64,000 nucleotides of DNA from an uncultured Bacteriovoracaceae bacterium (GTDB lineage Bacteria; Bdellovibrionota; UBA2428): contig CAZSSP010000009.1 of assembly GCA_964609695.1 (NCBI GenBank), positions 1,522 through 65,521 on the forward strand, read 5' to 3'. The notes beneath the pieces are model-generated. The model was given only the letters and a program-made list of their open reading frames with translations, was not told the DNA's origin and made no database searches. Below are positions 756-20,904 of the stretch, piece by piece; the first letter of the stretch is position 1, and every line of letters begins with the position of its first letter. The position numbers were made by a program, and so were the translations under genes.

Positions 756-759
756 AACA

Positions 760-4563: not shown

Positions 4564-4632
4564 TGACTTCAGTTTTGTAACAGGAGCCGCTCCATAATGG
4601 CTGAAAAACTTTAGCCAAAACTAGGATTTTTT

Positions 4633-5745
4633 TTAAGAGTCAAGTTGCCCAAAGTTTTCAAAAATTCTTGGTAAGAAATACTTTGCCCATACTGTAGCTC
4701 CAATTACAAAAGAGGCCGAAGCATAGGCTAAATGTTTTTCATAACTTTCGGGGATAAATACAGCTGCTATTCTTGTGAGTGCGGCAAGGCAGATGAAGAA
4801 TATTGCAGTTTTGATATATGGATTCTTTTCTTCAGCGCTGAGTCCATAGTTACCATGAGAAAGTATAACCCTAGATGCGACCATAAAGGTTAATAGGCTA
4901 AATCCGGTAATGTAAATTGTATGAAGCGCTTCAAGTCGGTATTGAGGCGTAATTGCCAGTGCCCACAATCCAATCAATGTACTCATCGTCGCAATTTTTA
5001 TACCGACACCAACTGCATTTTTTCGCTCATTCTTAGCAGTTATTTTCCAACCGAAAGCAACTAAACCAGTCGCTAACGCTGCCCTAAGATAAGGCGCCCA
5101 GAAATAACCGTAAACCTCATAGAGGACTAAAGACAATGTCATAAGCAAGCCAACCAAAAAGAAAATCCATTTGTTTCCGATTTTTGATTTTTGAGGGATA
5201 CCCAGAATTCTTGGAATCAAAAAGGTTCCAATTCCAAGAACAAGGCAAAGCATGAAGTTCTGGTAGAATAAGGCTGCACCTACTGTGGGTTGACCTGTGA
5301 GAACAAGTATCGACCCTAAGAATACAGAAAAAATTCCCCAGAAAAGCATTGGAAAAAAATTTGGAATTGGGACTTCTGTGCGAATAAATCTTCGAATGCC
5401 AAAGAAGAAAATGAAGATAGAGGTAACTAAGGTGCCTACAAAAAACATTTTTTCTGTAGAATCATAAACACCAACAGTAACAATCCATCCCATTAAAAGT
5501 GATGTACTAAGAAATTCGTAGCGATGAGCTGTTGGGGTTTGGGTCAATCGAGGAAGTGCCGTCATCAAGAACCCAATGGCATAGCTAAGCAGAAAAACGC
5601 CCATCATTAGATGCGCATGAAGACGGCCAGGATAGGGGAGACTGGGAATGAGCGCAGTTGCGATCCAAACTGAAACTCCGATAAGAGAAGCAAAGAGCCC
5701 AACAAAGAAAAATGGGCGGTAAGGATTAGCTAGATTTTTAGACAT
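4633..5745 (-). CDS. nnrS: NnrS family heme/copper membrane protein (NO stress associated)
   Basis: Polytopic membrane ORF carrying the NnrS signature HAHLMMGVFLLSYAIGFLMTALPR (compare HAHEMlFGF..a.i.GFLlTA). I start at ATG 5745 (MSKNLANPYRPFFF), which follows a GGAGAAGGA RBS. The ORF-track start at 5796 is less likely. Confidence 0.75.
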   Translation of the reverse strand: MSKNLANPYRPFFFVGLFASLIGVSVWIATALIPSLPYPGRLHAHLMMGVFLLSYAIGFLMTALPRLTQTPTAHRYEFLSTSLLMGWIVTVGVYDSTEKMFFVGTLVTSIFIFFFGIRRFIRTEVPIPNFFPMLFWGIFSVFLGSILVLTGQPTVGAALFYQNFMLCLVLGIGTFLIPRILGIPQKSKIGNKWIFFLVGLLMTLSLVLYEVYGYFWAPYLRAALATGLVAFGWKITAKNERKNAVGVGIKIATMSTLIGLWALAITPQYRLEALHTIYITGFSLLTFMVASRVILSHGNYGLSAEEKNPYIKTAIFFICLAALTRIAAVFIPESYEKHLAYASASFVIGATVWAKYFLPRIFENFGQLDS

Positions 5746-5803
5746 TTGAGTAATATTCCTTCTCCTAAGGAAGATCTCTACTGAGACTGGAGTCAATTAA
5801 ATA

Positions 5804-5819
5804 TTGTACATCTATACAA
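5804..5819. promoter_or_regulatory. imperfect palindrome upstream of nnrS; possible second Rrf2/NsrR operator
   Basis: TTGTACATCTATACAA has half-sites matching 6 of 8 positions. It lies about 60 nt upstream of the preferred nnrS start and shares an ACAT/AT-rich core with the 6378-6393 palindrome. Confidence 0.25.
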
Positions 5820-5873
5820 GAAGTAGCCTTCTTGAGGCGCTCACATTTAAAGTCTAGTAGCTTGTTCAAAAGT

Positions 5874-6314
5874 TTATTTAGCAAGTGGGAACTCACAAGG
5901 AGTAGAGTTTTTAACTAAACTTCTTGTTGGAACTAACTCGCTTAAAGTCGAGCTGGCAAATGCCTTCTCTACCAACTCCATAGCGTTATCAAGCCTCCTA
6001 TGAAGTGCGCAAAGATTCGTGCCATGCGATTTTAAACCTAAGGGACATTTGCGTATGCGCGGTAGAGGATCAACTGCTTGTACAACTTCAAGAATCGTTA
6101 GCTCTTCGGGTTTTTTAAACAACCGAAACCCGCCCTTAGCGCCTCTCAGACTCATGATAAGCTTTGCCTTCGTCAATTGCTGAAGAACTTTGGATAAATA
6201 ATCTGGTGGAACTTTCGAAAGTTTAGCAATTTCGGCGGTCGTCCATTGCCTCTCAATGTCTGAACAAAGTATGACCATAGCTCGCAGGGCATATTCGGTC
6301 GTTTGAGAAATCAC
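5874..6314 (-). CDS. nsrR: Rrf2-family transcriptional regulator, NsrR-like
   Basis: 146 aa. It has the N-terminal Rrf2 winged-helix TEYALRAMVIL...AEIAK and a C-terminal Cys pair (CPLG...NLCALH). It sits between nnrS and a divergent NO reductase. Confidence 0.75.
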   Translation of the reverse strand: MISQTTEYALRAMVILCSDIERQWTTAEIAKLSKVPPDYLSKVLQQLTKAKLIMSLRGAKGGFRLFKKPEELTILEVVQAVDPLPRIRKCPLGLKSHGTNLCALHRRLDNAMELVEKAFASSTLSELVPTRSLVKNSTPCEFPLAK

Positions 6315-6377
6315 ATCTTAATTTCTAACATGCTTCCACTCCTTTTCCCATTTGGCTAATTTCCTTTTACTCAATAC

Positions 6378-6393
6378 TGGACATATATGTCCA
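6378..6393. promoter_or_regulatory. perfect 16-bp palindrome TGGACATATATGTCCA; candidate NsrR operator over the norB promoter
   Basis: The sequence is its own reverse complement. It lies in the 107-bp nsrR/norB divergent region, immediately upstream of a TATAAT hexamer (6398-6403) and the TAGGAG RBS of norB. AT-rich inverted repeats of this kind are typical Rrf2/NsrR sites. Confidence 0.45.
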
Positions 6394-6421
6394 ATTATAT
6401 AATCTTAGGAGTTAGCTGTAA

Positions 6422-8725
6422 TTGAACTTCGAAAGGAAGAGCGTGGAACGTAGTTATAAAAAACTTTGGTATTCTTTAATATTTGTCATCTTGGCTTCAT
6501 TTTCGGTACTTGGATATTTTGGTAGGGAGATTTATCGTCAATCACCGCCCATACCAGCGTCTGTAGTGGACTCGTCGGGAAATATTCTTTTCACCGGAAC
6601 AGATATTCGAGAAGGCCAACAAGTCTGGCAATCCACAGGTGGACAAGAATTGGGTTCAATTTGGGGGCATGGTGCGTATGTGGCACCCGATTGGTCAGCA
6701 GATTGGTTACATAGAGAAGCTGTTGAGTTACTTACTATAAAGGCGCAAGAAAGATATCAGAAGAATCTCGATCAGTTGAGCGCACCTGAACAGGCATACC
6801 TCGAAGCGGAACTTCAAGGCGAAGTTCGTAAAAATACCTTTGATTCAGAAAAAAATATAATCAGCGTCTCCGCTGATAGGGCTCGATCAATGAGTGTCGT
6901 CGCCAAACATTATCAAGGACTCTTTATGAATGATCCCTCAAAGGCTGAATTGCGCGATGCTTATGCGATGCCAGAGTTTGTTGTTAAAGATCCAGAGCGA
7001 ATGAGAAAACTTAATGCCTTCTTCTTTTGGACCGCATGGGCTTGCGTCACTGAACGTCCCAATCAAAAAATTACTTACACAAACAATTGGCCTCCTGACA
7101 AGACTGTAGGAAATACTCCTCCGCCTTCGCTCCAAATCTGGACGGGTTTTAGTGTTATTCTCCTACTTTTTGGAATCGGACTTCTTGCTTTTTATTACGC
7201 TTCCCATAAAGACGAGGATGAAAAGGTTCCGCAGGCAGAGATTCCCAAAAGTGATCCCTTGCTAGCGCTCAATCCGACACCTTCTATGCGTGCTACCTTG
7301 AAATATTTTTGGGTGGTTATGGCACTCATACTCGTGCAAGTAATTTTAGGTGCTGTAACGGCACATTATGGAGTGGAGGGCACTGCCTTCTACGGATTTC
7401 CACTTGCTAAATATCTTCCCTATAGCGTCGTTCGCACGTGGCATTTGCAGCTTGGGATTTTCTGGATTGCAACTTCGTGGCTGGCCACGGGTCTTTTTAT
7501 TGGTCCTGCGGTTTCTGGATACGAGCCTAAGTATCAACGCCTCGGAGTAAATTGTTTATTTGTTGCGCTCTTAATAATTGTCGTGGGTTCAATGGCAGGC
7601 CAATGGTTTGCGATCATGCAACGATTGAGCTTCGATACAAATTTTTGGTTTGGACACCAAGGATTCGAGTATGTGGACTTAGGAAGGTTTTGGCAGATCT
7701 TTCTCGTGGTTGGACTTTTCTTATGGCTATTTTTAATGGTGAGATCTATAAAACCCGCGTTTAAAAATCCCAAGGAAAATAAAAATCTGCTTGCTCTATT
7801 TTTAATTTCTTGTGGAGCCATCGCGCTGTTTTATTCCGCTGGGCTCATGTGGGGAAAAAGCACCAATCTTGCAATTTCGGAATACTGGCGATGGTGGGTA
7901 GTTCATCTTTGGGTTGAAGGATTCTTTGAAGTATTCGCTACGGTCGTGATCGCCTTTCTCTTTGTGCGCATGGGCTTACTTCGTGCTTCAATTGCAACAG
8001 CTACCGTTTTATTTTCGACCACAATATTTTTATCGGGTGGAATTATAGGAACATTTCATCATTTGTATTTTACCGGTACTCCGACGGCGGTGATTGCACT
8101 TGGAGCGACCTTTAGTGGACTTGAAGTAGTGCCGCTTATTCTTATCGGTTTTGAGGCTTATCATAATCTTACCTTAAGTCGGGCGTCGGCCTGGCTTAAG
8201 GCTTACAAGTGGCCCATTTACTTTTTTGTTGCCGTGGCATTTTGGAATTTCGTAGGTGCCGGAATATTCGGATTTTTGATCAATCCCCCTATGGCCCTTT
8301 ATTATATGCAAGGACTCAACACAACTCCGGTCCATAGTCATGCCGCACTCTTTGGGGTTTACGGCATGCTTGGCATTGGGCTGATGCTTTTTGTTTTAAA
8401 AGGACTGGCTGCGAGAAATATTTGGAAAGACAAAACAATTCGCTTTGCTTTTTGGTCTCTCAATATTGGTTTGGCGCTAATGACGGTAATCAGCATACTT
8501 CCTGTAGGATTGTTTCAAACATGGGCGAGTGTAAATCACGGTTACTGGTATGCAAGGTCGGCTGAATTCCAACAACAGAGCATCTTGGATATTTTCAGAT
8601 GGCTCAGGGTATTAGGTGATACTGTTTTTACCGTAGGAGCACTTGCATTGGGTTATTTTGTACTTGGACTTAAAACCGGTGCTTCAGTTGAATCGCAAAG
8701 TGATATACCTCCAAGCACTGGGTAA
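6422..8725 (+). CDS. norB: quinol-dependent nitric oxide reductase (qNOR, NorB/NorZ type)
   Basis: 767 aa, the length of single-subunit qNOR (N-terminal extension plus a heme-copper-oxidase-like core). His ligand blocks WWVVHLWVEG, HHLYFTG and HSHAALFGVYG are present. The start is TTG, 10 nt after TAGGAG. Confidence 0.9.
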   Translation: MNFERKSVERSYKKLWYSLIFVILASFSVLGYFGREIYRQSPPIPASVVDSSGNILFTGTDIREGQQVWQSTGGQELGSIWGHGAYVAPDWSADWLHREAVELLTIKAQERYQKNLDQLSAPEQAYLEAELQGEVRKNTFDSEKNIISVSADRARSMSVVAKHYQGLFMNDPSKAELRDAYAMPEFVVKDPERMRKLNAFFFWTAWACVTERPNQKITYTNNWPPDKTVGNTPPPSLQIWTGFSVILLLFGIGLLAFYYASHKDEDEKVPQAEIPKSDPLLALNPTPSMRATLKYFWVVMALILVQVILGAVTAHYGVEGTAFYGFPLAKYLPYSVVRTWHLQLGIFWIATSWLATGLFIGPAVSGYEPKYQRLGVNCLFVALLIIVVGSMAGQWFAIMQRLSFDTNFWFGHQGFEYVDLGRFWQIFLVVGLFLWLFLMVRSIKPAFKNPKENKNLLALFLISCGAIALFYSAGLMWGKSTNLAISEYWRWWVVHLWVEGFFEVFATVVIAFLFVRMGLLRASIATATVLFSTTIFLSGGIIGTFHHLYFTGTPTAVIALGATFSGLEVVPLILIGFEAYHNLTLSRASAWLKAYKWPIYFFVAVAFWNFVGAGIFGFLINPPMALYYMQGLNTTPVHSHAALFGVYGMLGIGLMLFVLKGLAARNIWKDKTIRFAFWSLNIGLALMTVISILPVGLFQTWASVNHGYWYARSAEFQQQSILDIFRWLRVLGDTVFTVGALALGYFVLGLKTGASVESQSDIPPSTG

Positions 8726-8780
8726 GGTTAGGTGTTAGGACGTCTTTTATATTTAAGGAGTCGCGACAAAATTTAAATCA

Positions 8781-9743
8781 CTAATCGTTATTGTATTTAT
8801 TGATTTCAAATTTAAAAACACTTCCTTGGTCAAGATACCTAGTCTCGATGCTAGTTTTGTTTATCCAGTCCTGAAGTTGTTTTGAAGAGGGTATGTCTTT
8901 ACGAAGCTTGTATGCATTAATGGATGGTTTTGGAGTTTTTACTCTGATTGGCTCCTGGATCTTCATACTTGTTAGCTCTTGGAGGTTCTTTTGTATTTTC
9001 CTCTTCGCAAATTGAACTCGCTCTTTAAAAGAAGCCTTGGAAATTTTGAGTCTCTTAGCAGCAGCCCCAAGGCTCAATGGCTCATCGCTCATAATGTGAA
9101 TATCTAGGGCGGATCTTTGCTTGATGCTAAGACTACGCCAAGCAGCTTCAAGCTTCTCCCATAGCTCCGGCTTGATGCTATCAGGAATGTCTTTGCGTTT
9201 TTCAAAGTAGTGCGCCTTTGCGCTGCTAATGAGCCTTTCGACCTTGGGCTGCTCGGATTCAAACTCCTTGTAGGTCAGCTGGCGCTGGTCAAAAAGCTCC
9301 TCGATTGTTTCCCTGTCCCTGATACCTCGTGAGATCAAAAACGCCGTGAGTCGAAAAGTTGTGGAGTAAGAATCGAGCTGCCCGCTCTCAACAAGATCGC
9401 GGCAGATGCTCTCGCGCAAACTCTGCGAAGGACGCCTAATAATGTTGGCGGTAGGGTCGTCTTGAAGAAAAAGGTGGCACTTGCTAGTGAGTAGCTCGAC
9501 TCGTTCTGAGGGAAGGTCTCTAAAGAGTTTATCGAGCGAGCTTCTCTTTTTTGGTCCAAGTTCGGGATCGTAATTTCTGTACTGAGGAGCAAAAGCTCCC
9601 ACTGAAAAGCGCATGGATCTGGGGAGCATGGGCCTAGTCTCTGGGCTGAAGAAGCCCTCACGAGTGAGGTCGTCGGTCACCTTCTGAAGCTTTGCTTCAG
9701 TCCATGAGTGGGCGGCTTGTCGCCTTTGGTTGGCAGTTCTCAA
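8781..9743 (-). CDS. hypothetical island protein with a sigma-70 region-4-like / LuxR-like HTH near the C-terminus
   Basis: 320-aa ORF. LSIKQRSALDIHIMSDEPLSLGAAAKRLKISKASFKERVQFAKRKI resembles a sigma-70 r4 HTH. The 5' half is GC-rich. The start is uncertain: TTG at 9743, or an internal ATG about 39 codons in. Confidence 0.5.
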   Translation of the reverse strand: MRTANQRRQAAHSWTEAKLQKVTDDLTREGFFSPETRPMLPRSMRFSVGAFAPQYRNYDPELGPKKRSSLDKLFRDLPSERVELLTSKCHLFLQDDPTANIIRRPSQSLRESICRDLVESGQLDSYSTTFRLTAFLISRGIRDRETIEELFDQRQLTYKEFESEQPKVERLISSAKAHYFEKRKDIPDSIKPELWEKLEAAWRSLSIKQRSALDIHIMSDEPLSLGAAAKRLKISKASFKERVQFAKRKIQKNLQELTSMKIQEPIRVKTPKPSINAYKLRKDIPSSKQLQDWINKTSIETRYLDQGSVFKFEINKYNND

Positions 9744-9752
9744 GGGTGAGCC

Positions 9753-9761
9753 ATTATAACA
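9753..9761 (-). promoter_or_regulatory. extended -10 promoter element (TGtTATAAT) for the 8781-9743 gene
   Basis: The minus strand reads TGTTATAAT, 9 nt upstream of the TTG at 9743. No good -35 is present. Confidence 0.3.
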
Positions 9762-10086
9762 CTGCGCGACTAAAACTTGGAGAAAATACTAGGGGGCTAA
9801 GAGTACTTTTATTTCTATAAATATCGAGTAGTTATGGATATTGTACCTTAAAACACCCACCCGTTTGCGCTTTATAGTACCTAGATCACTCAATACTGGT
9901 CACCTCAAGCGCAATAGCTCGCTTATCCCACTGCTAGACATTTCAAGTCTACAATCAATCCATTTTCCCGCAACCACTTACCTGCTTTTCTGGTCGCTAG
10001 CTTGCGTCGTGTACCACAGCTTTGAAATGTTTTTACCGCTAAATCCAAACATAAAAACAAGAAAGAAAAGAAGGAGAATTAGATAA

Positions 10087-11628
10087 ATGCAGAACACAAA
10101 TCAGAAACAAGAAATAACAATGGCCGATGCCCACGGGGCAGCAACAATCGTGGGGGCGCTCATGATTGGAGTCTTTTGGAATGAGTATGGAGGAACCATC
10201 TCATACATCTACAGAACTTACTTTTACCTCATTTGGCTCGTGATCATAATGTCCGTGGGACTACTTGGAATGCTTGCTTATGACACATGGAAAAGAAGAA
10301 ATCCCGAGAAATGGATGCGCAATGTTTTACTAAAAATATGCGAAAAAAATTACGAAAAAGAGGGAGCAATTTACATTGGAAACACATTACAAGGTCAAAG
10401 GCCCATCTACTTAACGCCTGAACAACGCAAAGGACACGTTCAAATTATAGGATCAACTGGAAGGGGAAAAACTAAATCGGTTATCGTGCCGTGGTTTGCT
10501 CGCGATTTGAGACAAGGCTTGTCGCCAATACTTATCGATGGAAAGGGGGACTACTCAATTGTTTCAGAAATTCTAAAATGGGGAAACTTCACTGATAGAA
10601 GAATACATGTCTTCAACCCTGATGGTTATGGCTGCACGATAAATCCTCTTGAAGGCGGAAATCCGCATGAAGTGGCAGACAGACTTTTTGCATCGCTTGA
10701 GTTTGATTCTATGTATTTCAGAGAAGTGCAATACTCAGCGACTTTGAGTGCATTGGAATTAATGGAGGCAGCGGGAAATGTTCCAACCCTAAAGGATTTG
10801 CATGAAGCCTTATCAAACCCACAGCAATTCCTGGAAAGTTTAAACAAGTCCAAGCCACTTCCAAGCATCGCAATGCAGGAATTTATGAAGATTTCTCAGA
10901 TGAGAGTGAACGAAAGAGAAGAAAGGTTTTCTGGGATACTTTCTCAGCTTCGACCATTCACGACTGGGGTATTTAGAGGGATTACTAACTCAACTAAAAC
11001 AGAAGCAACTCATGTGAGTATCCAGGAAGTTATGAATCCAGATGGTATCGAGGGCAACACTCACGCTGCACTCATCGTACTGCTTCCTACTATGCAATAC
11101 CAAAAGACAGCCAAAGTTTTAGGTAAGCTCATACTGCAATCAATTGCTTGGGCATCTGCAAAACGCGATGCTGAAAAACCTATTGCAACCCTCTTTATTG
11201 ATGAATTCTCAGCATTTGTTTACGAGGGCTTTGAGCAGTTTTTAAACAAAGCTCGTAGCAAGGGAGTTGCCGTACATCTCTCGCACCAAAGCATGGGCGA
11301 TTTAGAATCAGTGTCGCCAAGTTTCGCTAAAACAGTAAATGTAAACACGAATACAAAGGTTTTACTTGGGCTAAATGATCCAGATACTGCTGACTACTTT
11401 GCAAGACACCTTGGAACTTTTACCACTACGAAAGAAACGGAACGCGCGAGTAAAGGAGTCATGGGAACAAATAAATCTGGCGAGATGTCGCTCAGAGAAG
11501 TTGAGCAATACAGGATTCATCCCAATAGGCTAAAGGCATTCTCGCACGGGCGCGGTGTTTTGAGTGTCATGGTTAGCGGAGTGCAACTTACAGAGGAGGT
11601 GCAATTTGAAGCAAACGGAGGCCTCTAA
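10087..11628 (+). CDS. type IV coupling protein (VirD4/TraD/TraG family ATPase)
   Basis: 513 aa. It has two N-terminal TM helices, Walker A IIGSTGRGKTKS and Walker B ATLFIDEFSAF, plus VHLSHQSMGDL and KVLLGLNDPDTA blocks typical of TraG-D_C/T4SS DNA-transfer ATPases. An AAGGAG RBS lies 10 nt upstream. Confidence 0.8.
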   Translation: MQNTNQKQEITMADAHGAATIVGALMIGVFWNEYGGTISYIYRTYFYLIWLVIIMSVGLLGMLAYDTWKRRNPEKWMRNVLLKICEKNYEKEGAIYIGNTLQGQRPIYLTPEQRKGHVQIIGSTGRGKTKSVIVPWFARDLRQGLSPILIDGKGDYSIVSEILKWGNFTDRRIHVFNPDGYGCTINPLEGGNPHEVADRLFASLEFDSMYFREVQYSATLSALELMEAAGNVPTLKDLHEALSNPQQFLESLNKSKPLPSIAMQEFMKISQMRVNEREERFSGILSQLRPFTTGVFRGITNSTKTEATHVSIQEVMNPDGIEGNTHAALIVLLPTMQYQKTAKVLGKLILQSIAWASAKRDAEKPIATLFIDEFSAFVYEGFEQFLNKARSKGVAVHLSHQSMGDLESVSPSFAKTVNVNTNTKVLLGLNDPDTADYFARHLGTFTTTKETERASKGVMGTNKSGEMSLREVEQYRIHPNRLKAFSHGRGVLSVMVSGVQLTEEVQFEANGGL

Positions 11629-12382
11629 AAAGATAGCTTCACTACATTTAACAGATAGGGATTTCGCCTTACTTCAATACCTTTACGACTACCGAATGAT
11701 GAGCATGGAACAAATAAGGAGATACATATTCACTGGTAATGCTTGGCCTACAATTACAAACCGAATTACGAAACTAGAACAAGGAGACTTCCTTGAAAGA
11801 ATAAGAGTTGCCAGCCTGACACATCCATTTCGCTTCACAAATGTTGGAACAGTTCTAAAAATCACCTCTTTAGGGATTGGAACGCTTGCAAATAAATTTG
11901 CATCACAAACATTTAGTGAAAGCGTACCGGATATACGGGTTCAGCAACTCCAGCATGATCTGCTACTGCTTGATGTAGTGGAAGGACTCAAAACTAGACA
12001 TCCGAAAAATGCTTTTGTGGAAGGAAGCCGCTACGTCAAAGGAATCGGCGACCAAACACGAGTACCTGACTTTGTGATGATCGATCCCAAAACAAAAGAA
12101 ACTACTGCCATCGAACTTGAACTCACTGCTAAATCCGAGCGTCGCTACCGCAGCATAATTCTCGACTACAGAATGTCGAAATCTTTTTCAAAAGTATTAT
12201 TTGTAACGGCTTCAGAGACTATAAAAAGAAAGATTATGACTGAAGTCATCGGCGAGAAAATACACGACTTTAAAATCCACAGCGCCGGAAAATTCTACTT
12301 TCTACTTGTGAGTGATATTTTTAGGCCTACTGATCCGACAGACTCATGTAAGTTATCTGATACACCATCACTTGCTGCTTAA
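11606..12382 (+). CDS. replication-relaxation family-like protein (PD-(D/E)xK-like motif)
   Basis: The N-terminal LTDRDFALLQYLYDYRMMSMEQIRRYIF is the typical winged-helix opening of the Replic_Relax family. The C-terminal VPDFVMID...AIELELTAKS looks like a PD...ExK nuclease motif. I start at TTG 11606, 6 nt after GAGGAGG. The ORF-track start at 11564 overlaps the upstream gene further. Confidence 0.65.
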   Translation: MKQTEASKKIASLHLTDRDFALLQYLYDYRMMSMEQIRRYIFTGNAWPTITNRITKLEQGDFLERIRVASLTHPFRFTNVGTVLKITSLGIGTLANKFASQTFSESVPDIRVQQLQHDLLLLDVVEGLKTRHPKNAFVEGSRYVKGIGDQTRVPDFVMIDPKTKETTAIELELTAKSERRYRSIILDYRMSKSFSKVLFVTASETIKRKIMTEVIGEKIHDFKIHSAGKFYFLLVSDIFRPTDPTDSCKLSDTPSLAA

Positions 12383-12417
12383 AACTTACCTATTAACTCA
12401 AAACTAAACCCAAACTG

Positions 12418-12635
12418 AATGTTTGGCCCGCCCGCAAATGCACACACATATAAGTTATTTCAAATACTAGGAAAAACACCTTGCTGTTAACCCCTACACC
12501 CCACCGATCCGACCTGACCTCTCACCCTCTACGATGTTGAGAGGTCAGGTCGGATCGGCAGGATTACGGGGGCAAGGTGTGTGGAATTGAAGATTATTTT
12601 TTGTGGATAAGGAGCGGGCGGAGGACGGGAACATT
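12418..12635. repeat. 218-bp concentric imperfect palindrome with a perfect 21-bp inverted-repeat core
   Basis: Core arms are CCGATCCGACCTGACCTCTCA (12504-12524) and its exact complement (12538-12558), separated by a 13-nt loop. Middle arms are ACACCTTGC (12476-12484) and GCAAGGTGT (12572-12580). Outer arms are AATGTT...CCGCCCGC (12418-12435) and GCGGGCGG...AACATT (12614-12635). The region is intergenic and GC-rich. Confidence 0.9.
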
Positions 12636-12658
12636 TAGAACAATCGAAAGGAATATGA

Positions 12659-12844
12659 ATGAATAAGAAACGTCGTTGGGAATGCACGGCGGCTAATACG
12701 GAATACAGCGCAATAGATAACGAGGAAATGAAAGCACGACTTGAAGAACTGTGGATGATCTTGTTAAATGTGAGGAGCCAGCAAATTTTTCGCCAGAGTA
12801 CCTCGGTTCATGTCCTGTCTGACCACGAAAGGAAGACAGCATGA
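12659..12844 (+). CDS. small hypothetical protein, translationally coupled to the recombinase
   Basis: 61-aa ORF after an AAAGGA RBS. Its TGA overlaps the recombinase ATG (ATGA at 12841-12844). No recognisable family. Confidence 0.4.
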   Translation: MNKKRRWECTAANTEYSAIDNEEMKARLEELWMILLNVRSQQIFRQSTSVHVLSDHERKTA

Positions 12845-14568
12845 AGAATAAAACATTTAAGATCGCAATTTACGTCCGCGTTAGTACCGAGGAACAAGCA
12901 GGTAATCCCGAAGGTTCAATAAAAAACCAAGAGCTACGACTTCGAGACTTTATAAAACTAAAAAACATGGTCGCACCTTTTGGTGAAGTGGCGCAGGTTT
13001 TCTCTGATCCGGGGAAATCAGCTAAGGATATGAATCGTCCGAGCTTCCAGAGGCTTATGCAAGCCATTGAGAAAAGAGAGGTGAATCTCATTCTTGTAAC
13101 AGAATTATCAAGACTCACGAGATCTATTAAAGACTTCTCACTGCTTCAGGAATTTCTAAAAAAGCATGAGTGTGAGTTTTTAAGTCTTCGAGAGAATTTT
13201 GATACTTCATCTGCCACAGGAGGAATGGTCCTCAACATTATGGCTACCATTGCCGAGTTTGAAAGACGTCAAACAGCAGAAAGGATCTCGAATTCTTTTC
13301 ATCAAAGGGCAAGGCGGGGGCTATATAATGGAGGTTCCGTCCCATTGGGTTACAAGATTGATCCAGATAAGCCAGGACATCTTGCGATTGTCCCTGAGGA
13401 AGCAGAGATTATAAAAATAATCTTTAAAAAGTTCTTAGAACTAGAAACCATGATGCACACAACAAGGTGGCTTAACGACACGGGGCTTACGCTTCCTAGG
13501 CGAGTCATCGGAGGTGGTGGGCCAAGAGCGAAAATCTTTCGCATCGATATGGTTCATCACATTTTAAACAACAAAACGTACATAGGCACTCGGGTCTTTA
13601 AAACTAAAGACGGAGTGGAAGAATCAAAAGCTGCGTGGGAACCCATCATTGATGACAGAACCTTTCGTCGGACTGTTGAACTTCTAAAAAAGAATCGCTT
13701 TAAGAAGAGGACTCACAAGAATCTTCGCTATCCGTTCACGCTATCAGGGCTACTTGGTTGCAAGATTTGCGGTGGAAAACTTTGCGGGAAATCAGCGCAT
13801 GGGAGAAATGGCAAGATTCCCTACTATGAACACAGCCACGCAAATAAGGTGAACTACTGCCTCAATGGAAAGGGCATCGTTTGCGAATTGCACCGGATAC
13901 AAGCAGCTAAAATAGAGCCTCTTGTCTGGCAGGATGTGAAAGCATTTCTAACTAATCAAAGGTTCACTGAAGATCTGATTACTTCTGCTAGAAAACTTAA
14001 CTCAGCAAACACGCAGGTAAGCGAGGTCGAAGTGGTAGAGAAGAAGATGAAAAGTCTTGATAACCAGATCGAGGTTTTGGCTGAAAGGATTGCTACTTTA
14101 CCGAAGAATATTGATCCTAAAGTGATCTACGAGCAGTTATCGAAATTTCAAACTTCTAAGGCTTCGCTTGAGCTGCAATATGATGAGGCTAGAGCAAATG
14201 CTGCACCTACTGACGATCCAATTGATTACGCTGATTTAAACCGCTTTACGGAAGGACTGCGGGGGCTGCTCGAAGAAGCTGAAACTAAACCTGAGATCCA
14301 AGCTGCCATTATCAAAAAAATCATTCACAAGATTGAAATCACGCCGCAAGGTTTTGATACGCACTACTTTATCGGACACAACAAATACAAAAGGGCCTCT
14401 GGGGTTAATCCCCCAGAGGCCCTTCTTTTTTTATTTCCACCAGTCGATGGTTCGACTTTATTGACAAATGGTGGACTCGATCGGGATCGAACCGACGACC
14501 CCCACAATGCCATTGTGGTGCTCTCCCAGCTGAGCTACGAGCCCTTAAACGGACTCAACAATTACTAG
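12841..14568 (+). CDS. large serine recombinase (resolvase domain + recombinase domain + zinc ribbon + coiled coil); 3' end questionable
   Basis: The N-terminal catalytic block is KIAIYVRVSTEEQ, with LILVTELSRLTRS and IAEFERRQTAERI. Further in are GGSVPLGYKID (recombinase domain), CKICGGKLCG...C (zinc ribbon) and a long coiled coil. The last roughly 60 codons lie over a terminator hairpin and the antisense of tRNA-Ala. Confidence 0.9.
   Translation: MKNKTFKIAIYVRVSTEEQAGNPEGSIKNQELRLRDFIKLKNMVAPFGEVAQVFSDPGKSAKDMNRPSFQRLMQAIEKREVNLILVTELSRLTRSIKDFSLLQEFLKKHECEFLSLRENFDTSSATGGMVLNIMATIAEFERRQTAERISNSFHQRARRGLYNGGSVPLGYKIDPDKPGHLAIVPEEAEIIKIIFKKFLELETMMHTTRWLNDTGLTLPRRVIGGGGPRAKIFRIDMVHHILNNKTYIGTRVFKTKDGVEESKAAWEPIIDDRTFRRTVELLKKNRFKKRTHKNLRYPFTLSGLLGCKICGGKLCGKSAHGRNGKIPYYEHSHANKVNYCLNGKGIVCELHRIQAAKIEPLVWQDVKAFLTNQRFTEDLITSARKLNSANTQVSEVEVVEKKMKSLDNQIEVLAERIATLPKNIDPKVIYEQLSKFQTSKASLELQYDEARANAAPTDDPIDYADLNRFTEGLRGLLEEAETKPEIQAAIIKKIIHKIEITPQGFDTHYFIGHNKYKRASGVNPPEALLFLFPPVDGSTLLTNGGLDRDRTDDPHNAIVVLSQLSYEPLNGLNNY
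14392..14432. terminator. bidirectional rho-independent terminator
   Basis: A 13-bp perfect stem, AGGGCCTCTGGGG (14392-14404) with CCCCAGAGGCCCT (14411-14423), closes a 6-nt loop. It is followed by TCTTTTTTT on the plus strand and TTTTGTATTTG on the minus strand. On the minus strand it lies just downstream of the tRNA-Ala 3' end. Confidence 0.75.
14469..14544 (-). tRNA. tRNA-Ala (anticodon GGC), CCA encoded
   Basis: The reverse complement GGGCTCGTAGCTCAGCTGGGAGAGCACCACAATGGCATTGTGGGGGTCGTCGGTTCGATCCCGATCGAGTCCACCA folds as a cloverleaf. It has a 7-bp acceptor stem with the G3:U70 Ala identity pair, the D-arm GCTC/GAGC, the anticodon loop AUGGCAU and the T-loop GGTTCGATCC. Confidence 0.92.
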
Positions 14569-14590
14569 TTAGAGATTGCAGTGAAGTCAA
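14561..14590 (-). promoter_or_regulatory. candidate sigma-70 promoter of tRNA-Ala
   Basis: The minus strand reads TTGACT (14590-14585), a 17-nt spacer, then TAGTAAT (14567-14561). This places a start site about 10 nt upstream of the tRNA 5' end. Confidence 0.35.
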
Positions 14591-14729
14591 AACTGCGACT
14601 AAAGTTTAGACACTTGCTCGCCAAAACTTGGAATTTTTAGCTGAAAAGCTCAAAAAGACCAAAAGTCGGCTAAAGCTATAAGTTATTGATATTAATAGAA
14701 TAAATGCAAGTAACCGGGTGCTGTTATTG

Positions 14730-14745
14730 TGGCACCTGCCTTGCA
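14730..14745 (+). promoter_or_regulatory. sigma-54 (RpoN) promoter, TGGCAC-N5-TTGCA
   Basis: TGGCACCTGCCTTGCA matches the -24/-12 consensus TGGCAC-N5-TTGCW exactly. It lies 28 nt upstream of ATG 14773, with a GAGGAAG RBS in between. Confidence 0.55.
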
Positions 14746-14772
14746 ACCTTGTTAATTGAGGAAGTTGAATTT

Positions 14773-14991
14773 ATGTCTGCTAACCGCGATCCGAATGCTG
14801 TTGTTCAATTCTACTTTGGAAATGCTGCTCGAGACCTTAGCCATCTCCTCCCCCCCGACGAGGCTACAGATCTTGAGCAGCTCCACCTCAAACTCGACGA
14901 ACTCGAAGTGATCGCAAACGAAATCGAAAACGCTCACGAGCACATCTCTTTTCTCTTCAGAGATATTTCCTATTTTATTAAAGGCAAATAA
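14773..14991 (+). CDS. small acidic hypothetical protein (72 aa)
   Basis: This is the in-frame ATG within ORF 14704-14991, preceded by GAGGAAG and the sigma-54 promoter. The predicted product is helical and acidic (DELEVIANEIENAHEH). The overlapping minus-strand ORF lacks comparable signals. Confidence 0.5.
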   Translation: MSANRDPNAVVQFYFGNAARDLSHLLPPDEATDLEQLHLKLDELEVIANEIENAHEHISFLFRDISYFIKGK

Positions 14992-14993
14992 TT

Positions 14994-15437
14994 CTAAAAA
15001 TTTTCCCAAACTTTTTGAACAATTCGATTTTCGCCACTGAGTTTTATTTTAATTCTACAAATTCTTTTAAAAGAAATTAGGGATTTCACTTCGGGATACT
15101 CTTCAAGATATTTTTCAAAATTCTCTGGCCATTCCACTAAATATAAAAAGGCTTGATCGGAATAATGTTCCAAAGAAAGTTTGGCCACGTCATCGAAATG
15201 ATCCATTCTATAACAATCAATATGCAAAATTTTTCCTTGAGGCAGAGTGTATTCCAACATTTTTAAAAAAGTTGGACTTTTAACCGCACCCGGTTCCACA
15301 CCCAAATGTTCTAGAAATTCTTGACTAAAAGTTGTTTTCCCAGCGCCCAATGGGCCTTCCAGAAAAATCAAATAAGGCATTTTTTCTTTTTTAAGATCAT
15401 CGGCTAATTCTGAAACTAATCCGCTAAAATATTTCAT
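14994..15437 (-). CDS. tsaE: tRNA threonylcarbamoyladenosine (t6A) biosynthesis ATPase TsaE
   Basis: 147 aa with the P-loop LEGPLGAGKTTF and the downstream SPTF...H.D.YR pattern typical of YjeE/TsaE. Confidence 0.85.
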   Translation of the reverse strand: MKYFSGLVSELADDLKKEKMPYLIFLEGPLGAGKTTFSQEFLEHLGVEPGAVKSPTFLKMLEYTLPQGKILHIDCYRMDHFDDVAKLSLEHYSDQAFLYLVEWPENFEKYLEEYPEVKSLISFKRICRIKIKLSGENRIVQKVWENF

Positions 15438-15445
15438 GTCTCAGG

Positions 15446-17029
15446 TTAATTTTGCCATAACTTTTCACGAGCTTCACACATGGCTTTTAAAATATCCCGG
15501 GCCAATGAACTTTGAGTGAGCTTTTTTAAAGCAATTTTCTGCGAACACAATCCCATCATAAGTATCGACAAAGCCTTTTGTGATTGAACTTCCATTTGCC
15601 TATTTAAGCCGCCCAAAAAACCGGCCAAGACATCGCCCGACCCCGCACTAGCCAATTTAGAATCCGCTAAATTAAAAATCCACTGACGCGAGTCTTCGTT
15701 TAAATCAGAAACTATTGGATAGGCCCCCTTAAGCAATAGGGCGCCCTTATACTTCTTAGACACAAGTAAACTCTTAAGTTTTTCAAAAACTTCAAAACGA
15801 GTTTCGGGATACTTTTCTCCAAGGGCCTCTAAAATTCTATGCGCCTCACCTGGATGAGGCGTAAAAATAAGGTCGGCTTCACAATGAGAAATTTCTTTTA
15901 AAAATGGAATCAATCCACCGGCATCCACCACAAGAAGTCCCTTATATCGAGACAACGCCTTCCAAAAATTTGGATTCCAATTCAAAGTCACATTTGGATT
16001 AAGGCCACAACCAAAAACTATAGAACTATAATCATCAAAAAAATTTTCATAATTTTGAATTTCCGAAAAACTTTTCAAAGTCCATTCTTGAAGTTCAGAG
16101 ATTGAATACTTGTCTTTATCTTCCTGAAGCACAGTCGCATATCCCGCCCCCGAACGCATTGCTGCTTCAGCAGCCAGCCTCAAAGCCCCACCATGGTGAA
16201 GTTCTCCCCCCACCAAGAGCACTCTGCCTCTAGAATTTTTATGTTGATCAGAAGATGCTTGGTAAAGCTTTACAGAATGCTCTTTAGTTAAAAGCTCCAA
16301 AGCATCACGGACGCTTGGAATATATGAGTATTTTTGACGAGTGAGAAGCTCGGAAACATCCTTACCCAAGGAAAACACTTTAAGTCTTCCACTGGCCGCC
16401 ACTCCATCGTCGTGTAGTTGCGAAAATTTAACGGAAGCCACTGAAAAAGTTTCGTGGGCTCTTAAAAATTTAAATTCATGAATACGTTTAGCGTTCTCAA
16501 GTAATCCAGAGGGCACATCAACAGCAATCACATAAGAGCGTGCAAAATGAGCTTCTTTAATAAAATTCAGTAACTTTATAGTTGAAGTTTCGGGAGCTCG
16601 ATCTTTTGCACCCACACCTAAGAGCGCATCAACAATAACAACTTTCTTTCCTGAATTTTTATATTTCTTTATCTCTTTAAAATCATTTTTTGAAAAATCT
16701 AAATAAATAAGCTCATTCTTTTTTTTTGATGCTTTTAATAATTCAAATTCTTTTTCATTGAGTGAAGAGGGATTCTCTCTATCTAAACAAAAAATAAATT
16801 TAGTTTTTGTAGTGCTATAACGAGCAACAGATAACCCATCGCCACCGTTATTTCCGCGCCCAATTAAAAAATAAACAGCATCGGGTTTTAACTGAGCGCA
16901 TACTTTATCGAGACGGGAGGCCATGCTTTGGCCCAAATTTTCCATCATCTCGAACTCGGAGACATTTTGAGCTTTATAATTTTTTTCGGCTTGAGATTGT
17001 AGTTCTGCGTTTAAGATTGGCAAAATCAT
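15446..17029 (-). CDS. nnr: bifunctional NAD(P)H-hydrate repair enzyme Nnr (epimerase + ADP-dependent dehydratase, YjeF)
   Basis: 527 aa. It has the N-terminal YjeF_N motif GRGNNGGDG and the C-terminal carbohydrate-kinase-like motifs HPGE and GSGDVLAG. Confidence 0.85.
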   Translation of the reverse strand: MILPILNAELQSQAEKNYKAQNVSEFEMMENLGQSMASRLDKVCAQLKPDAVYFLIGRGNNGGDGLSVARYSTTKTKFIFCLDRENPSSLNEKEFELLKASKKKNELIYLDFSKNDFKEIKKYKNSGKKVVIVDALLGVGAKDRAPETSTIKLLNFIKEAHFARSYVIAVDVPSGLLENAKRIHEFKFLRAHETFSVASVKFSQLHDDGVAASGRLKVFSLGKDVSELLTRQKYSYIPSVRDALELLTKEHSVKLYQASSDQHKNSRGRVLLVGGELHHGGALRLAAEAAMRSGAGYATVLQEDKDKYSISELQEWTLKSFSEIQNYENFFDDYSSIVFGCGLNPNVTLNWNPNFWKALSRYKGLLVVDAGGLIPFLKEISHCEADLIFTPHPGEAHRILEALGEKYPETRFEVFEKLKSLLVSKKYKGALLLKGAYPIVSDLNEDSRQWIFNLADSKLASAGSGDVLAGFLGGLNRQMEVQSQKALSILMMGLCSQKIALKKLTQSSLARDILKAMCEAREKLWQN

Positions 17030-18393
17030 ACAGTCAATGCCGTACGAATAACATCCTCGAGCTGATCAGCAAGGCTTTTAATAACCACTGGGTCTTCAGC
17101 TTCGAGCATGATTCTACAAAGCGGCTCAGTCCCGGAATAACGAATCAACAATCGACCACGATCTTTTAATTTTGATTCCACTTCAGTGATCAACTTTTGC
17201 ACTTCGGGAAGCGTGGTGAAATCTTTTTTTTGTTTAACTTTTACGTTACGTAAAATTTGAGGATAAGGCGTCATAATCTTCTTCAACTCGGAAAGTTTTT
17301 TCTGTTCTCTTCGCATCACAGCCAAAACGCCTAGAGCTGCCATGGTGCCATCACCCGTTGTCGAATAATCGCCGAATATTATATGGCCCGAGGGTTCTCC
17401 TCCGAAATTTGAGCCTGCACTTCGCATATGCTCAACCACAAGACGATCGCCCACAGGGCAACGAAGTACTTTAATACCCAAAGTTTTCATAACCTGATCT
17501 AAGCTGTAATTACTCATTTGAGTAACCACTACAGTATCGTTTTTGAGTGCTTTTCGTTTTTTCAAATCAGCTGCTAAAATTGTTAAAGCCTGATCGCCGT
17601 CAACCACTTCGCCTGTTTCATCTACAAAAACACAACGATCGCCATCTCCATCGAGTGCAATACCAATGTCGGCTCGATATTTAACAACAAGTTCTTGAAC
17701 TTGAGAAGGATAGAGCGCGCCTACTTCGTGATTGATATTAGTACCATCGGGTTTATTCCCAATTTGAATAACTTCAGCACCCAGCTCTTCAAAAACAATT
17801 GGAGAAAATTTATAAGCAGCACCGTGTGCTGTATCTAGAACAATACGAATGTTCCGCAAATCCATGTTGGCTGGAAAACTGGACTTCACATGAACCACAT
17901 AACGGCCCATAGCATCGTCGATTCTTTTAGCTCGCCCCAACTCACCTCCAATGGGGAGGGAGGATTCGGGGCTTTCATTTAAAACCATATTTTCAATTTT
18001 TTCTTCGATATCGTCATCAAGCTTAAAACCATCGTGACCAAATAGTTTTATGCCGTTGTACTCATATGAATTATGAGAAGCGCTCACCATAATTCCAGCA
18101 TCAGCGCGCATGCTTTGAGTTAAAAATGAAACCCCAGGAGTGGTCATCGGGCCCACGAGTAGAGCAAAAGCACCCTGACTGGTAACCCCAGCGGCTAGAG
18201 CTTGTTCAATCATATAGGAGCTCCTGCGAGTGTCTTTTCCAATCAAGATTACGCTAGATTTATCAACTCGCTGACCCTGTCCTTTGAAATGCTGGGCCAC
18301 TGCACGTCCAACTTTTAGGGCTAATTCAGCGGTCATAGGGTAACGATTGGCCACACCGCGAATACCGTCGGTGCCGAAGAGTTTCTTAGTCAT
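17026..18393 (-). CDS. glmM: phosphoglucosamine mutase
   Basis: 455 aa. It has the N-terminal KLFGTDGIRG, the active-site loop VSASHNSYEYNGIK, DGDGDR and GEPSGH. Confidence 0.95.
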   Translation of the reverse strand: MTKKLFGTDGIRGVANRYPMTAELALKVGRAVAQHFKGQGQRVDKSSVILIGKDTRRSSYMIEQALAAGVTSQGAFALLVGPMTTPGVSFLTQSMRADAGIMVSASHNSYEYNGIKLFGHDGFKLDDDIEEKIENMVLNESPESSLPIGGELGRAKRIDDAMGRYVVHVKSSFPANMDLRNIRIVLDTAHGAAYKFSPIVFEELGAEVIQIGNKPDGTNINHEVGALYPSQVQELVVKYRADIGIALDGDGDRCVFVDETGEVVDGDQALTILAADLKKRKALKNDTVVVTQMSNYSLDQVMKTLGIKVLRCPVGDRLVVEHMRSAGSNFGGEPSGHIIFGDYSTTGDGTMAALGVLAVMRREQKKLSELKKIMTPYPQILRNVKVKQKKDFTTLPEVQKLITEVESKLKDRGRLLIRYSGTEPLCRIMLEAEDPVVIKSLADQLEDVIRTALTV

Positions 18394-18436
18394 AGCCTAT
18401 AGTTATATCCACTAGCCTAGCCTTTGACAAAGCATT

Positions 18437-18513
18437 TACTGTGCGACGTTAAGAGTGGTCACATAAAAGGGACAGCCTATGGAGAGCCCACCCACTCTTT
18501 AGGTCGCACAGTA
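18437..18513. repeat. 77-nt hairpin (22-position stem, 20 paired) in the glmM upstream gap
   Basis: TACTGTGCGACGTTAAGAGTGG (18437-18458) pairs with CCACTCTTTAGGTCGCACAGTA (18492-18513), with 2 mismatches and a 33-nt loop. No T-run follows on either strand. Confidence 0.8.
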
Positions 18514-18518
18514 GAAAT

Positions 18519-18941
18519 TTAAGGTAAAACGCTCATTCTGAGGCCCTGCTCTAGGCGTTTGAGACTCAAATTTAGTTGCCCGCTTCGAGCAGACTCCAAA
18601 CATCCACTAACTTGAGTCAGCTTATCGGCTTTCTTCAAAGTATGGGTGTAGGTTCCAGCGGCACATCCTTGATCCGGGACAGGGTCTTTAGCCAGATTTC
18701 GAAGAGTAGCAATAGACTCGCTCACATATGGGTAAACTCGATAACTCAGCTCTGTACCATTAAATAGAACTTTATCGTTTTTAAGCACCAATCTATTAAG
18801 GGTTGCATACTTTAGTTTGTTTAAGGTTTTTACTTCAATCACTTCTTGAGTCTTTGATTTTTTCTTCTCAGGAGAAGCCTGCAGAGCTCCCACAATAATA
18901 AAATATAAAACTGCGATCCCACGAAGCTTTTTACTACTCAC
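18519..18941 (-). CDS. secreted hypothetical protein
   Basis: 140 aa with an N-terminal signal-like segment (GIAVLYFIIVGALQA). Its start overlaps the upstream gene by 8 nt. Confidence 0.5.
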   Translation of the reverse strand: MSSKKLRGIAVLYFIIVGALQASPEKKKSKTQEVIEVKTLNKLKYATLNRLVLKNDKVLFNGTELSYRVYPYVSESIATLRNLAKDPVPDQGCAAGTYTHTLKKADKLTQVSGCLESARSGQLNLSLKRLEQGLRMSVLP

Positions 18942-20901: not shown

Positions 20902-20904
20902 AAT

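Follow-up and report, generated by a model that had tools for sequence, protein, structure and literature searches.

The window analysed here is a stretch of 64,000 nt from contig CAZSSP010000009.1 (assembly GCA_964609695.1) of an uncultured Bacteriovoracaceae bacterium, and we judge it probable, with good confidence, that it carries an integrative mobilizable island, about 15 kb long, with a serine integrase that integrates at the CCA ends of many different tRNA and transfer-messenger RNA (tmRNA) genes and with cargo that includes a nitric oxide (NO) detoxification cluster. A first-pass annotation had marked out the 5.7 kb between norB and a tRNA-Ala(GGC) gene as a compact serine recombinase island resembling an integrative mobilizable element (IME), and this segment is the integration and mobilization module (8811-14468), next to the tRNA gene, of a larger mobile island that carries norB with it. 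The most interesting feature was missed there, and is that the recombinase belongs to a clade of serine integrases aimed at the ends of tRNA and tmRNA genes (tDNAs), in which the element's arm of the attachment (att) site is the end of the integrase's own open reading frame (ORF). The earlier observation is largely right, the IME reading being right in kind and wrong on the relaxase, the boundaries and the supposedly unknown gene set. All five of its ORFs are present in a six-frame list, and its tRNA-Ala gene is recovered by ARAGORN and by Rfam (Table 1).

The recombinase has the domain order of large serine recombinases, with a catalytic resolvase domain that bears the nucleophilic serine at the N-terminus and then recombinase and zinc-ribbon domains (Resolvase, E = 2.6e-32; Recombinase, 2.3e-14; Zn_ribbon_recom, 1.2e-6; all above the Pfam gathering scores, in line with the families named in the first-pass annotation). 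The catalytic Ser15 is encoded at 12883-12885 within the motif YVRVSTEEQ, R13 and S15 are invariant in 18 sequences, and the ORF is an intact one of 575 codons, so the element has an integrase of its own. The ORF had been taken to end at 14468; instead it runs through the hairpin at 14391-14424, has no stop codon of its own, and continues antisense across the entire tRNA-Ala gene to a stop at 14566-14568, the last codons encoded by the element being G-S-x-x-L-T-N. This ending is a property of the family, where a C-terminal G-S-x-x-L-T-N-G-G motif is shared and beyond it the homologues split into tails that look like antisense tRNA. The family has at least 1,401 homologues, those with names coming from Bdellovibrio or Pseudobdellovibrionaceae, and is so far almost confined to Bdellovibrionota. 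The product of the window's own gene is absent from a collection of 15 billion proteins, its tblastn matches in PLSDB are partial and below 36% identity, and no exact-sequence record was found for the window's recombinase, coupling protein, NorB or Rrf2, only TsaE being on record. At two related loci, L093 (11222-12949) and L094 (11109-12908), intact recombinase ORFs lie without a gene in the public gene tables; probably coding sequences that overlap tRNA genes are dropped by annotation pipelines and the clade is systematically under-annotated.

The evidence for tDNA targeting comes from 80 genomic loci retrieved with the family profile, 50 of which, together with L001, L002 and the window, make up a set of 53 where a tRNA or tmRNA gene converges on the recombinase ORF and the two overlap by their 3' ends. 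The targets comprise tmRNA and tRNAs with 17 anticodons (Ala, Arg x4, Val x3, Met, Leu x5, Gln, Phe, Pro), while recombinases of a Firmicute outgroup have a tRNA at the ORF end in 0 of 10 cases. In 51 of the 53 loci the ORF enters the tRNA or tmRNA gene in the same frame, the third base of an Asn codon being the first base of the reverse-complemented CCA, and this frame is kept over 38 different spacings between start codon and tRNA, which argues for selection on translation up to the att arm. The most frequent overlap of ORF and tRNA is 22 nt, and from a reading of the junction sequences the stop codon at this modal overlap is a TGA within the reverse-complemented T-loop.

The arm on the element side (P arm, CGATGGTTCGACTTTATTGACAAA) lies directly against the CCA end, with the consensus GTTCG-N6-TTGACAAA, and its conserved positions counted from the tRNA end are GTTCG (-19 to -15), T-A (-12, -11), TTGA (-8 to -5) and AAA (-3 to -1); in the window the tRNA-side end of the element reads ...TTATTGACAAA. 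Synonymous third positions within GTTCG are near-invariant among 44 non-redundant loci (T in 43, G in 41), and so there is a constraint on the DNA beyond that on the Gly-Ser dipeptide. The GTTCG of the window (14450-14454) mirrors the T-loop CGAAC of the tRNA (14488-14492), and P arm and tRNA 3' half together form a dyad of about 45 bp, GTTCG(-19..-15)/CGAAC(+19..+23), centred on 14471 at the boundary of CCA and discriminator base. Large serine recombinases use short att sites, some 40-50 bp long and imperfectly dyad-symmetric about a 2-bp crossover. A gapless position weight matrix of the arm finds one strong site in the window (score 27), scores elsewhere being within shuffle noise. The arm is identical in the window and at L093, L094 and L095 and differs by one base at L001. 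Within window positions 1-20000 there is no second copy of a tRNA fragment, direct repeat or P arm.

Where the strands are exchanged can be narrowed to the interval AAA/TGGT, from the divergence of junctions and the centre of the dyad. Near-identical elements at different tDNAs part only beyond TGGTGG, and each tDNA keeps its own acceptor/T-stem strand, which argues against a tRNA 3' end borne by the element. A crossover inside the T-loop, with the island bringing its own tRNA 3' end as in tyrosine-integrase islands and, by inference, the ssrA islands of Dehalococcoides, we regard as very unlikely. The left ends of L009 and L095 do hold tDNA-3'-like fragments of 26-32 nt, three differences separate L004 from the window in the last 16 nt of the tRNA, and for Dehalococcoides an insertion point within the T-loop, with a repeat of 20 bp, has been given (PMC3146451). 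However identical P arms stand beside tRNA-Ala (in two hosts), tRNA-Phe and tmRNA, each target is intact by ARAGORN with its own acceptor/T-stem 3' strand, and an element-borne 3' end would yield hybrid tRNAs. Returning to the CCA-end crossover, the elements at L010 and L018 share a short repeat AAAT and these two point to AAAT or GT as the crossover sequence; in the window's subfamily no dinucleotide is common to the tRNA junction and the four left junctions, and so only the 7-bp interval is given.

Just inside the arm, the tail of the recombinase ORF contains a G+C-rich hairpin with the form of a bidirectional terminator, which probably terminates transcription of the tRNA. A terminator-like hairpin in the tRNA sense occurs within 160 nt in 37 of the 53 loci against 0.38 expected per 160 nt of ORF interior, an enrichment obtained with lenient criteria over a background that is not negligible. 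A terminator for the recombinase strand was considered and set aside, being found in only 11 of the 53 loci with hairpins mostly oriented for the tRNA strand, and Rfam matches of two hairpins to a microRNA family and to HPnc0260 fall below the gathering score and are meaningless.

One consequence of an att arm inside the ORF is that the C-terminus of the recombinase depends on what lies beyond the arm. In the integrated window copy it consists of 32 tRNA-antisense residues, and across a P/P' junction it is predicted to become 21 different residues, the tail of the circle form ending ...LTNLKTLPWSRYLVSMLVLFIQS. In two metagenomic contigs (L091:1042-3048 and L092:5138-7348) the recombinase ORF crosses the att arm into a tDNA-like mimic and then into an in-frame helix-turn-helix domain; read-through products of this kind have 668-765 aa (proteins P0015 and P0019, also P0080, P0110 and P0040) and no tRNA is present. 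These P/P'-type junctions are attP-like and could represent circles or tandem arrays. A more far-reaching proposal, which we hold as conceivable though doubtful, is that this serine-integrase clade evolved to read the tRNA 3' half, with its T-loop at a fixed distance from CCA, as a half-site, so that one enzyme inserts behind many tRNA and tmRNA genes, and that a C-terminus differing between the integrated and excised forms serves as a built-in sensor of whether the element is integrated, biasing directionality or stability. The integrated tail would then be antisense tRNA with a stop often in the T-loop, and the excised tail a read-through, in some relatives into a helix-turn-helix domain.

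That the module moves is apparent from its relatives. It is found at tRNA-Ala(GGC) of another host (L093, 89% nucleotide identity to the window), at tRNA-Phe(GAA) (L094, 85%) and at tmRNA (L001, recombinase 96% identical in amino acid sequence; L095, a deletion derivative of the window's module), and these with the window are one element at differing targets, 85-92% identical in nucleotide sequence and 85-97% when modules are compared. Similarly elements at tRNA-Ala (L010), tRNA-Leu(CAA) (L018) and tRNA-Phe (L044) are 92% and 81% identical over about 7 kb. Contigs whose TsaE is 99-100% identical to that of the window were taken as conspecific. Among these L006 carries the window's element at tRNA-Ala, L009 has there a different element of 4.1 kb with a recombinase 76% identical, and L004 (TsaE 100%) has the gene for DnaN, the sliding clamp, directly after tRNA-Ala (L004:5877-6370), similarity to the window ending at 14471. 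An IME-like mobility is thus borne out, the same module lying at three kinds of target and two conspecific contigs lacking it. The L004 copy of tRNA-Ala does not encode CCA, and three base changes in the 3' strand of its acceptor and T-stem produce two mispairs; recombination with a mimic of the tRNA may have left an empty but scarred site here. In the 4.1-kb element two consecutive tDNA-3'-like fragments with a hairpin between them occupy the left end (L009:1341-1490); one resembles tRNA-Ala, and the other resembles tmRNA and has the same sequence as the left end of L095's norB island, which suggests serial insertions at different tDNAs.

It is conversely conceivable that the island is a fixed, immobile remnant, with intact genes and no excision, in which reading through the tRNA is a functionless by-product, and this we consider fairly unlikely. 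Decay in place does occur, for in L095 everything from the 320-aa protein gene through recombinase residue 73 is deleted, window positions 1-20000 hold neither a tDNA-like repeat nor a second P arm, and the overlapping tail was also considered non-functional by McMurdie et al. (PMC3146451). However all five ORFs of the module are intact and the catalytic motif is present, the P arm is identical in three other copies at three different tDNAs and altered by one base in a fourth, and the frame kept over 38 linker lengths indicates selection on translation up to the arm.

The genes for transfer lie between the recombinase and norB. The 513-aa coupling protein is of VirD4/TraG type (TraG-D_C, E = 1.7e-15; TrwB_AAD_bind, 2.4e-12; T4SS-DNA_transf, 4.7e-9; all above gathering scores), and the Walker A GSTGRGKT (nt 10450-10473) and Walker B LFIDEF (nt 11191-11208) that had been pointed out are both there. 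Of the two transmembrane helices claimed for it, the one at residues 46-64 passes a strict hydrophobicity cut-off and the other is a weaker segment, and so the N-terminal membrane anchor has one strong and one weaker part. Next to it a 272-aa protein had been called replication-relaxation-like, and the annotation saw no canonical MOB relaxase in the island; yet the Replic_Relax family (PF13814) is the MobC/MOBC relaxase superfamily (PMC5357655). The assignment to it goes through relatives: the protein itself has no PF13814 match at E<=0.1, whereas 13 of the 20 members of its family (itself and 19 neighbours of family recombinases with which it aligns) do match, with a best E of 4e-11. Relatives in the databases that are about 37% identical bear the name 'replication-relaxation family protein', many homologues have a precomputed PF13814 annotation, and public gene calls of the relatives begin at the equivalent of 11606. 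By family transitivity we file the protein as a divergent relative of the MOBC superfamily and not as a profile member. Its family has invariant residues H131, D132, P168, D169, E184, E186 and K190 (H-D...P-D...E-x-E-x3-K), and an AlphaFold (AF2) model (pLDDT 83) has an N-terminal winged helix followed by an alpha/beta core, Foldseek giving weak matches to MarR-type winged helix-turn-helix proteins and, for the core, to the PD-(D/E)XK nucleases Can2, MunI and PA-N.

Between this candidate relaxase and the recombinase a long imperfect hairpin with a conserved loop is found at the same position in 10 elements of three subfamilies, with compensatory changes in 11 of its 23 pairs, and is on these grounds a reasonable candidate for an origin of transfer (oriT). 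A 61-aa ORF overlaps the recombinase start and may encode a recombination directionality or accessory factor; in 71 of 86 loci the recombinase starts where an ORF of 50-100 aa ends, and these ORFs have the motif W.C...RLAE.WE.L..SQ in common. The remaining ORF, on the opposite strand, is kept in L010, L012, L018, L044, L047, L085, L089, L093 and L094, and a metagenome scan with its 320-aa product returned only two loci. The product had been called a helix-turn-helix protein, and while it has no Pfam match of its own, 4 of 8 relatives match Sigma70_r4 (best E 5.5e-5); it is a putative regulator or relaxosome accessory protein.

Mating-pore genes such as virB4 are absent by Pfam from every ORF of at least 90 aa in window 1-4700 and from all named genes in 4633-14568, the coupling protein being the sole component of a type IV secretion system, and with a large serine recombinase adjoining the tRNA this agrees with the IME-like reading. 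That the island is instead a degenerate prophage, phage satellite or integrated plasmid, not mobilized by conjugation, seems extremely unlikely. Large serine recombinases are common in prophages and mobilization of the island is deduced from its sequence; however capsid, terminase, tail and replication genes are missing among the long ORFs of window 1-14568, as had been noted for phage structural genes, a coupling protein with a MOBC relaxase is a conjugation-specific pair, and the relaxase finds no tblastn match in the 72,556 plasmids of PLSDB.

To the left the island does not stop at norB. Window 1-8810 is a cargo region that travels with the module and includes an NO-detoxification cluster of hemerythrin, NnrS, Rrf2 and NorB, and its G+C content and tetranucleotide usage lie outside those of all host intervals. 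The first-pass annotation took norB for an unrelated host flank, but between the window and L093 hemerythrin is 93%, NnrS 94%, Rrf2 95% and NorB 84% identical, as against 75-96% for the module proteins, and the housekeeping proteins beyond the tRNA only 64% (GlmM) and 38% (TsaE). L095, reached through a NorB 98% identical, is collinear with window 1-8716 at 92-94% nucleotide identity and then joined directly to window 13060-14500, the tmRNA gene following with a right flank like that of L001; at L095:12270-13724 NorB lies 11 nt upstream of a recombinase without residues 1-73 and hence without the catalytic serine, an example of the in-place decay of such islands. The left end of the L095 island (L095:3520-3800) comprises a relic hairpin and degenerate P arm, then TGGTGGAGGCGGTCC..TCGAACC, then a 100-aa helix-turn-helix ORF that is also present at the left end of L009. 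By collinearity the window's island should end on this side about 650 nt to the left of position 1.

A self-contained element of 5.7 kb between host genes norB and tRNA-Ala, as pictured in the first-pass annotation, appears distinctly unlikely. In its favour is a sharp and reproducible left boundary at codon K311 of the 320-aa ORF (8811): similarity is lost exactly there in the window, L089, L093 and L094/L090, with four unrelated left neighbours, leaving the last 9 codons (8781-8810) outside the conserved module. The 26 nt left of it look like a decayed P arm (TTTATTGAtttCAAAT against TTTATTGACAAAT), as if the module had inserted beside an older element, and the composition of the module is the most deviant. 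The segment as flagged has the highest G+C (43.3% against 40.4 +/- 0.9% for intervals of the same size in the stretch) and the most deviant tetranucleotide usage of all such intervals, so that the foreign composition first argued from counts of 34/60 in 9601-9660 and 17/60 in 15001-15060, which are exact, holds up. However the norB block is foreign in composition itself, has 84-95% identity to the block of a host with a GlmM only 64% identical, and in L095 lies at a tmRNA gene, where it is fused directly to a shortened version of this recombinase. An empty norB/tRNA-Ala junction, the test that had been proposed, is missing from conspecific contigs L004 and L009, and none is expected if norB belongs to the island; and the element side of the 8811 boundary shows no conservation at the DNA level. 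In the larger island the boundary (...CAAAT/TTAAAAACAC) may mark an att-like junction in its interior, formed by tandem accretion, or a breakpoint of the module or of recombination.

Some further observations concern the cargo and the two boundaries. The 26 nt just left of the K311 boundary (8785-8811, CGTTATTGTATTTATTGATTTCAAAT) are P-arm-like with small indels, and in 3 of 4 left junctions AATCG motifs lie 17-23 nt from the boundary; a weak half-site or the remains of older elements may be seen in them. An earlier candidate, GGAGTCGCGAC at 8755-8768, had been read as an arm resembling tRNA that had lost 13 bp, and was abandoned after the K311 boundary and L095 came to light. The GreA/Rnk-like and MreB-like genes (window 2860-4563; L093:4882-6504; L095:7100-8122) differ in position and orientation among the three islands, the GreA-like gene is absent from L095, and the MreB-like protein, only 50% identical between window and L093, may be a partition-type actin and not the cell-shape MreB. 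The left neighbour of a third module copy (L089, reverse complement, 275-6123) encodes HemN, a Crp/Fnr regulator, outer-membrane proteins and a thioredoxin-like protein, an anaerobic or NO-related set, as judged from the translations, that hints at a recurrent cargo theme. Cumulative GC skew peaks at about 14000-14500 (+0.045 over 1-14468, -0.15 over 14545-28000), the switch falling together with the island/host boundary and with a change from mostly plus- to minus-strand genes. Between the tRNA and tsaE a called 95-aa ORF (14704-14991) without a Pfam family is conserved (93-99%) in all conspecific contigs.

Table 1. Features of the island and its target in the window (positions in nt).
Feature	Position	Strand	Basis or remark
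Hemerythrin	8-487	+	Pfam; cargo
DUF488	760-1353	-	Pfam; cargo
ClC channel	1423-2745	-	Pfam; cargo
GreA/Rnk-like	2860-3309	-	Pfam; cargo
MreB-like	3541-4563	+	Pfam; cargo
NnrS	4633-5796	-	Pfam; cargo
Rrf2	5874-6314	-	Pfam; cargo
NorB, quinol NO reductase	6422-8725	+	Pfam; cargo
320-aa protein, C-terminal sigma-70 region-4-like helix-turn-helix	8781-9743	-	Conserved position and orientation
Left boundary of conserved module, codon K311 of 320-aa ORF	8808-8815		Sharp loss of similarity
VirD4/TraG-type type IV coupling protein, 513 aa	10087-11628	+	Pfam, Walker A/B, transmembrane segment aa 46-64
Replic_Relax/MOBC-type relaxase candidate, 272 aa	11564-12382	+	Winged helix and PD-(D/E)XK-like core; relatives
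Long imperfect hairpin with conserved loop, candidate oriT	12476-12580		DNA fold -37.6 kcal/mol, z = -8.0
61-aa ORF overlapping recombinase start (ATGA)	12659-12844	+	No Pfam match; shared motif in relatives
Large serine recombinase, 575-aa ORF	12841-14568	+	Pfam; element-encoded part ends at about 14468, last 33 codons tRNA-Ala antisense
G+C-rich bidirectional terminator hairpin (probable) in recombinase ORF tail	14391-14424		45 nt past the tRNA 3' end on the minus strand
Element-side att arm (P arm)	14445-14468	+	Codons D-G-S-T-L-L-T-N; position-specific conservation
Crossover interval AAA/TGGT (CCA end and discriminator base)	14466-14472		Junction divergence, dyad centre
tRNA-Ala(GGC), integration target, intact, CCA encoded	14469-14544	-	ARAGORN; Rfam tRNA, 58.1 bits

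Taken together these features suggest a pathway in which the recombinase would read the universally conserved acceptor/T-arm geometry of tRNAs as one half of the chromosomal site and cross over within AAA/TGGT, leaving the tRNA intact, its new terminator being supplied by the island within the tail of the recombinase ORF. Once the island had excised as a circle, its hairpin at 12476-12580 would be nicked by the MOBC-type relaxase, and the island's own VirD4-type coupling protein would hand the strand to the type IV secretion system of another element. The small recombinase-coupled ORF may determine directionality, and the C-terminus of the recombinase would change with the state of integration, any functional effect of this being conjecture. 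Several points weigh against such a scheme. Neither a circular excised form nor an empty site was observed for this exact island, its left end falls outside the window, and the absence of P-arm-like DNA conservation to the right of 8811 means that the 5.7-kb module alone may not excise. Insertion at tRNA-Ala in both the window and L093 could go back to one old event followed by transfer of the whole region, the three substitutions in the 3' part of the L004 tRNA are unexplained, and the window's subfamily lacks a common crossover dinucleotide. The relaxase candidate is without a PF13814 match of its own and its Foldseek nuclease matches have E values of 4e-3 to 0.1, the terminator enrichment carries the leniency already stated, and no helper type IV secretion system was found, no search for one having been made.

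A clade of serine integrases at tDNA ends overturns the rule of thumb that such sites belong to tyrosine integrases and generalizes the isolated Dehalococcoides tmRNA case, and island finders that pair tDNA fragments with tyrosine integrases will miss elements of this type. Serine integrases are the preferred recombinases of genome engineering, and one with a universally conserved RNA-gene landing pad that leaves the gene undamaged would offer a broadly portable insertion tool; such an enzyme would also suit studies of half-site recognition and directionality well. The island moreover carries a nitric-oxide reductase cluster between distantly related lineages of predatory bacteria.

Parts of this arrangement have counterparts elsewhere. 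Mobilization of CloDF13 type reportedly combines the MOBC relaxase MobC with its own coupling protein MobB, and so, like the island, that plasmid is said to bring a restriction-endonuclease-like relaxase and a VirD4-like protein and to borrow only the mating pore; CloDF13, however, has no integrase, and the window's relaxase is very divergent, with no direct match to PF13814 or PLSDB. In archaeal integration of the SSV1 type and in the integration-dependent immunity of mycobacteriophages attP lies inside a gene, so that integration alters the gene product, as here. The enzymes there are tyrosine integrases and the SSV1 integrase gene is split, whereas only the extreme C-terminal tail of the serine integrase changes in the island, with an effect on function that is conjectural.

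Tyrosine-integrase islands at tDNAs (Islander/TIGER; PMC4383910) are alike in integrating on the 3' side of the tDNA with the integrase beside it, in forming tandem arrays, in leaving displaced tDNA-like fragments (here in relatives L009 and L095) and in keeping the target gene functional. The recombinase family and chemistry are unrelated, however, the window copy has no long identity block, and no tyrosine recombinase lies beside the tDNA among the ORFs of 1-14568. The Islander paper gives tRNA and tmRNA genes as targets of tyrosine integrases only (PMC4383910), and IME reviews describe serine integrases inside protein genes (including PMC5357655). The gene set, which the first-pass annotation did not recognise, is that of IME_Class_8 of streptococci, where a VirD4-type coupling protein, PF13814/MobC and a serine integrase occur together (Coluzzi et al. 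2017, PMC5357655). Both are compact, with a small ORF and a terminal, outward-facing integrase, and the co-oriented order of coupling protein, MobC-type relaxase and integrase is the same in 10087-14568, the likeness being one of gene order and not of compared proteins. The two elements of that class are in Firmicutes at intergenic sites, and neither tRNA targeting nor an att site within the ORF is reported for them.

The closest precedent is that of the ssrA islands of Dehalococcoides, whose CcrB-like serine recombinase DsiB overlaps its att site and ssrA (McMurdie et al. 2011, PMC3146451), so that the serine recombinase at a tDNA, rightly called atypical, is unusual but not unprecedented. 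A literature search found no description of tRNA-targeting serine integrases besides this case, its incomplete coverage making this absence of evidence only. In both systems the island is integrative and presumed mobilizable, with a large serine recombinase at its tDNA-proximal end, it targets a tRNA-like gene at the 3' end (tmRNA, as for L001 and L095), and the recombinase ORF overlaps the att site and has its stop outside the island, reading into ssrA or a neighbouring island in the one and into the tRNA in the other; tandem accretion, integrase-less neighbours and metabolic cargo are also shared. The 20-bp far-boundary repeat of Dehalococcoides has no equivalent in window 1-20000, the far end being expected off the window, and L009 and L095 do carry such fragments. 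The six-gene Dehalococcoides module (with DsiA, RecF-like, ParB, Mom and an embedded pseudo-tRNA) has no member among the five ORFs here, so the second small serine recombinase DsiA, ParB and Mom are all lacking, and in their place are a MOBC relaxase candidate and a VirD4 coupling protein within the module. The hosts are Bdellovibrionota as against Chloroflexota, the comparison with DsiB being by description only, insertion is at the CCA end and not midway through the T-loop, and at least 17 ordinary tRNA species serve as targets besides tmRNA, several being used by one element lineage. Overall it is the use of ordinary tRNAs, of several targets per lineage and of the CCA end, along with the MOBC/VirD4 module, that sets the present family apart from Dehalococcoides.

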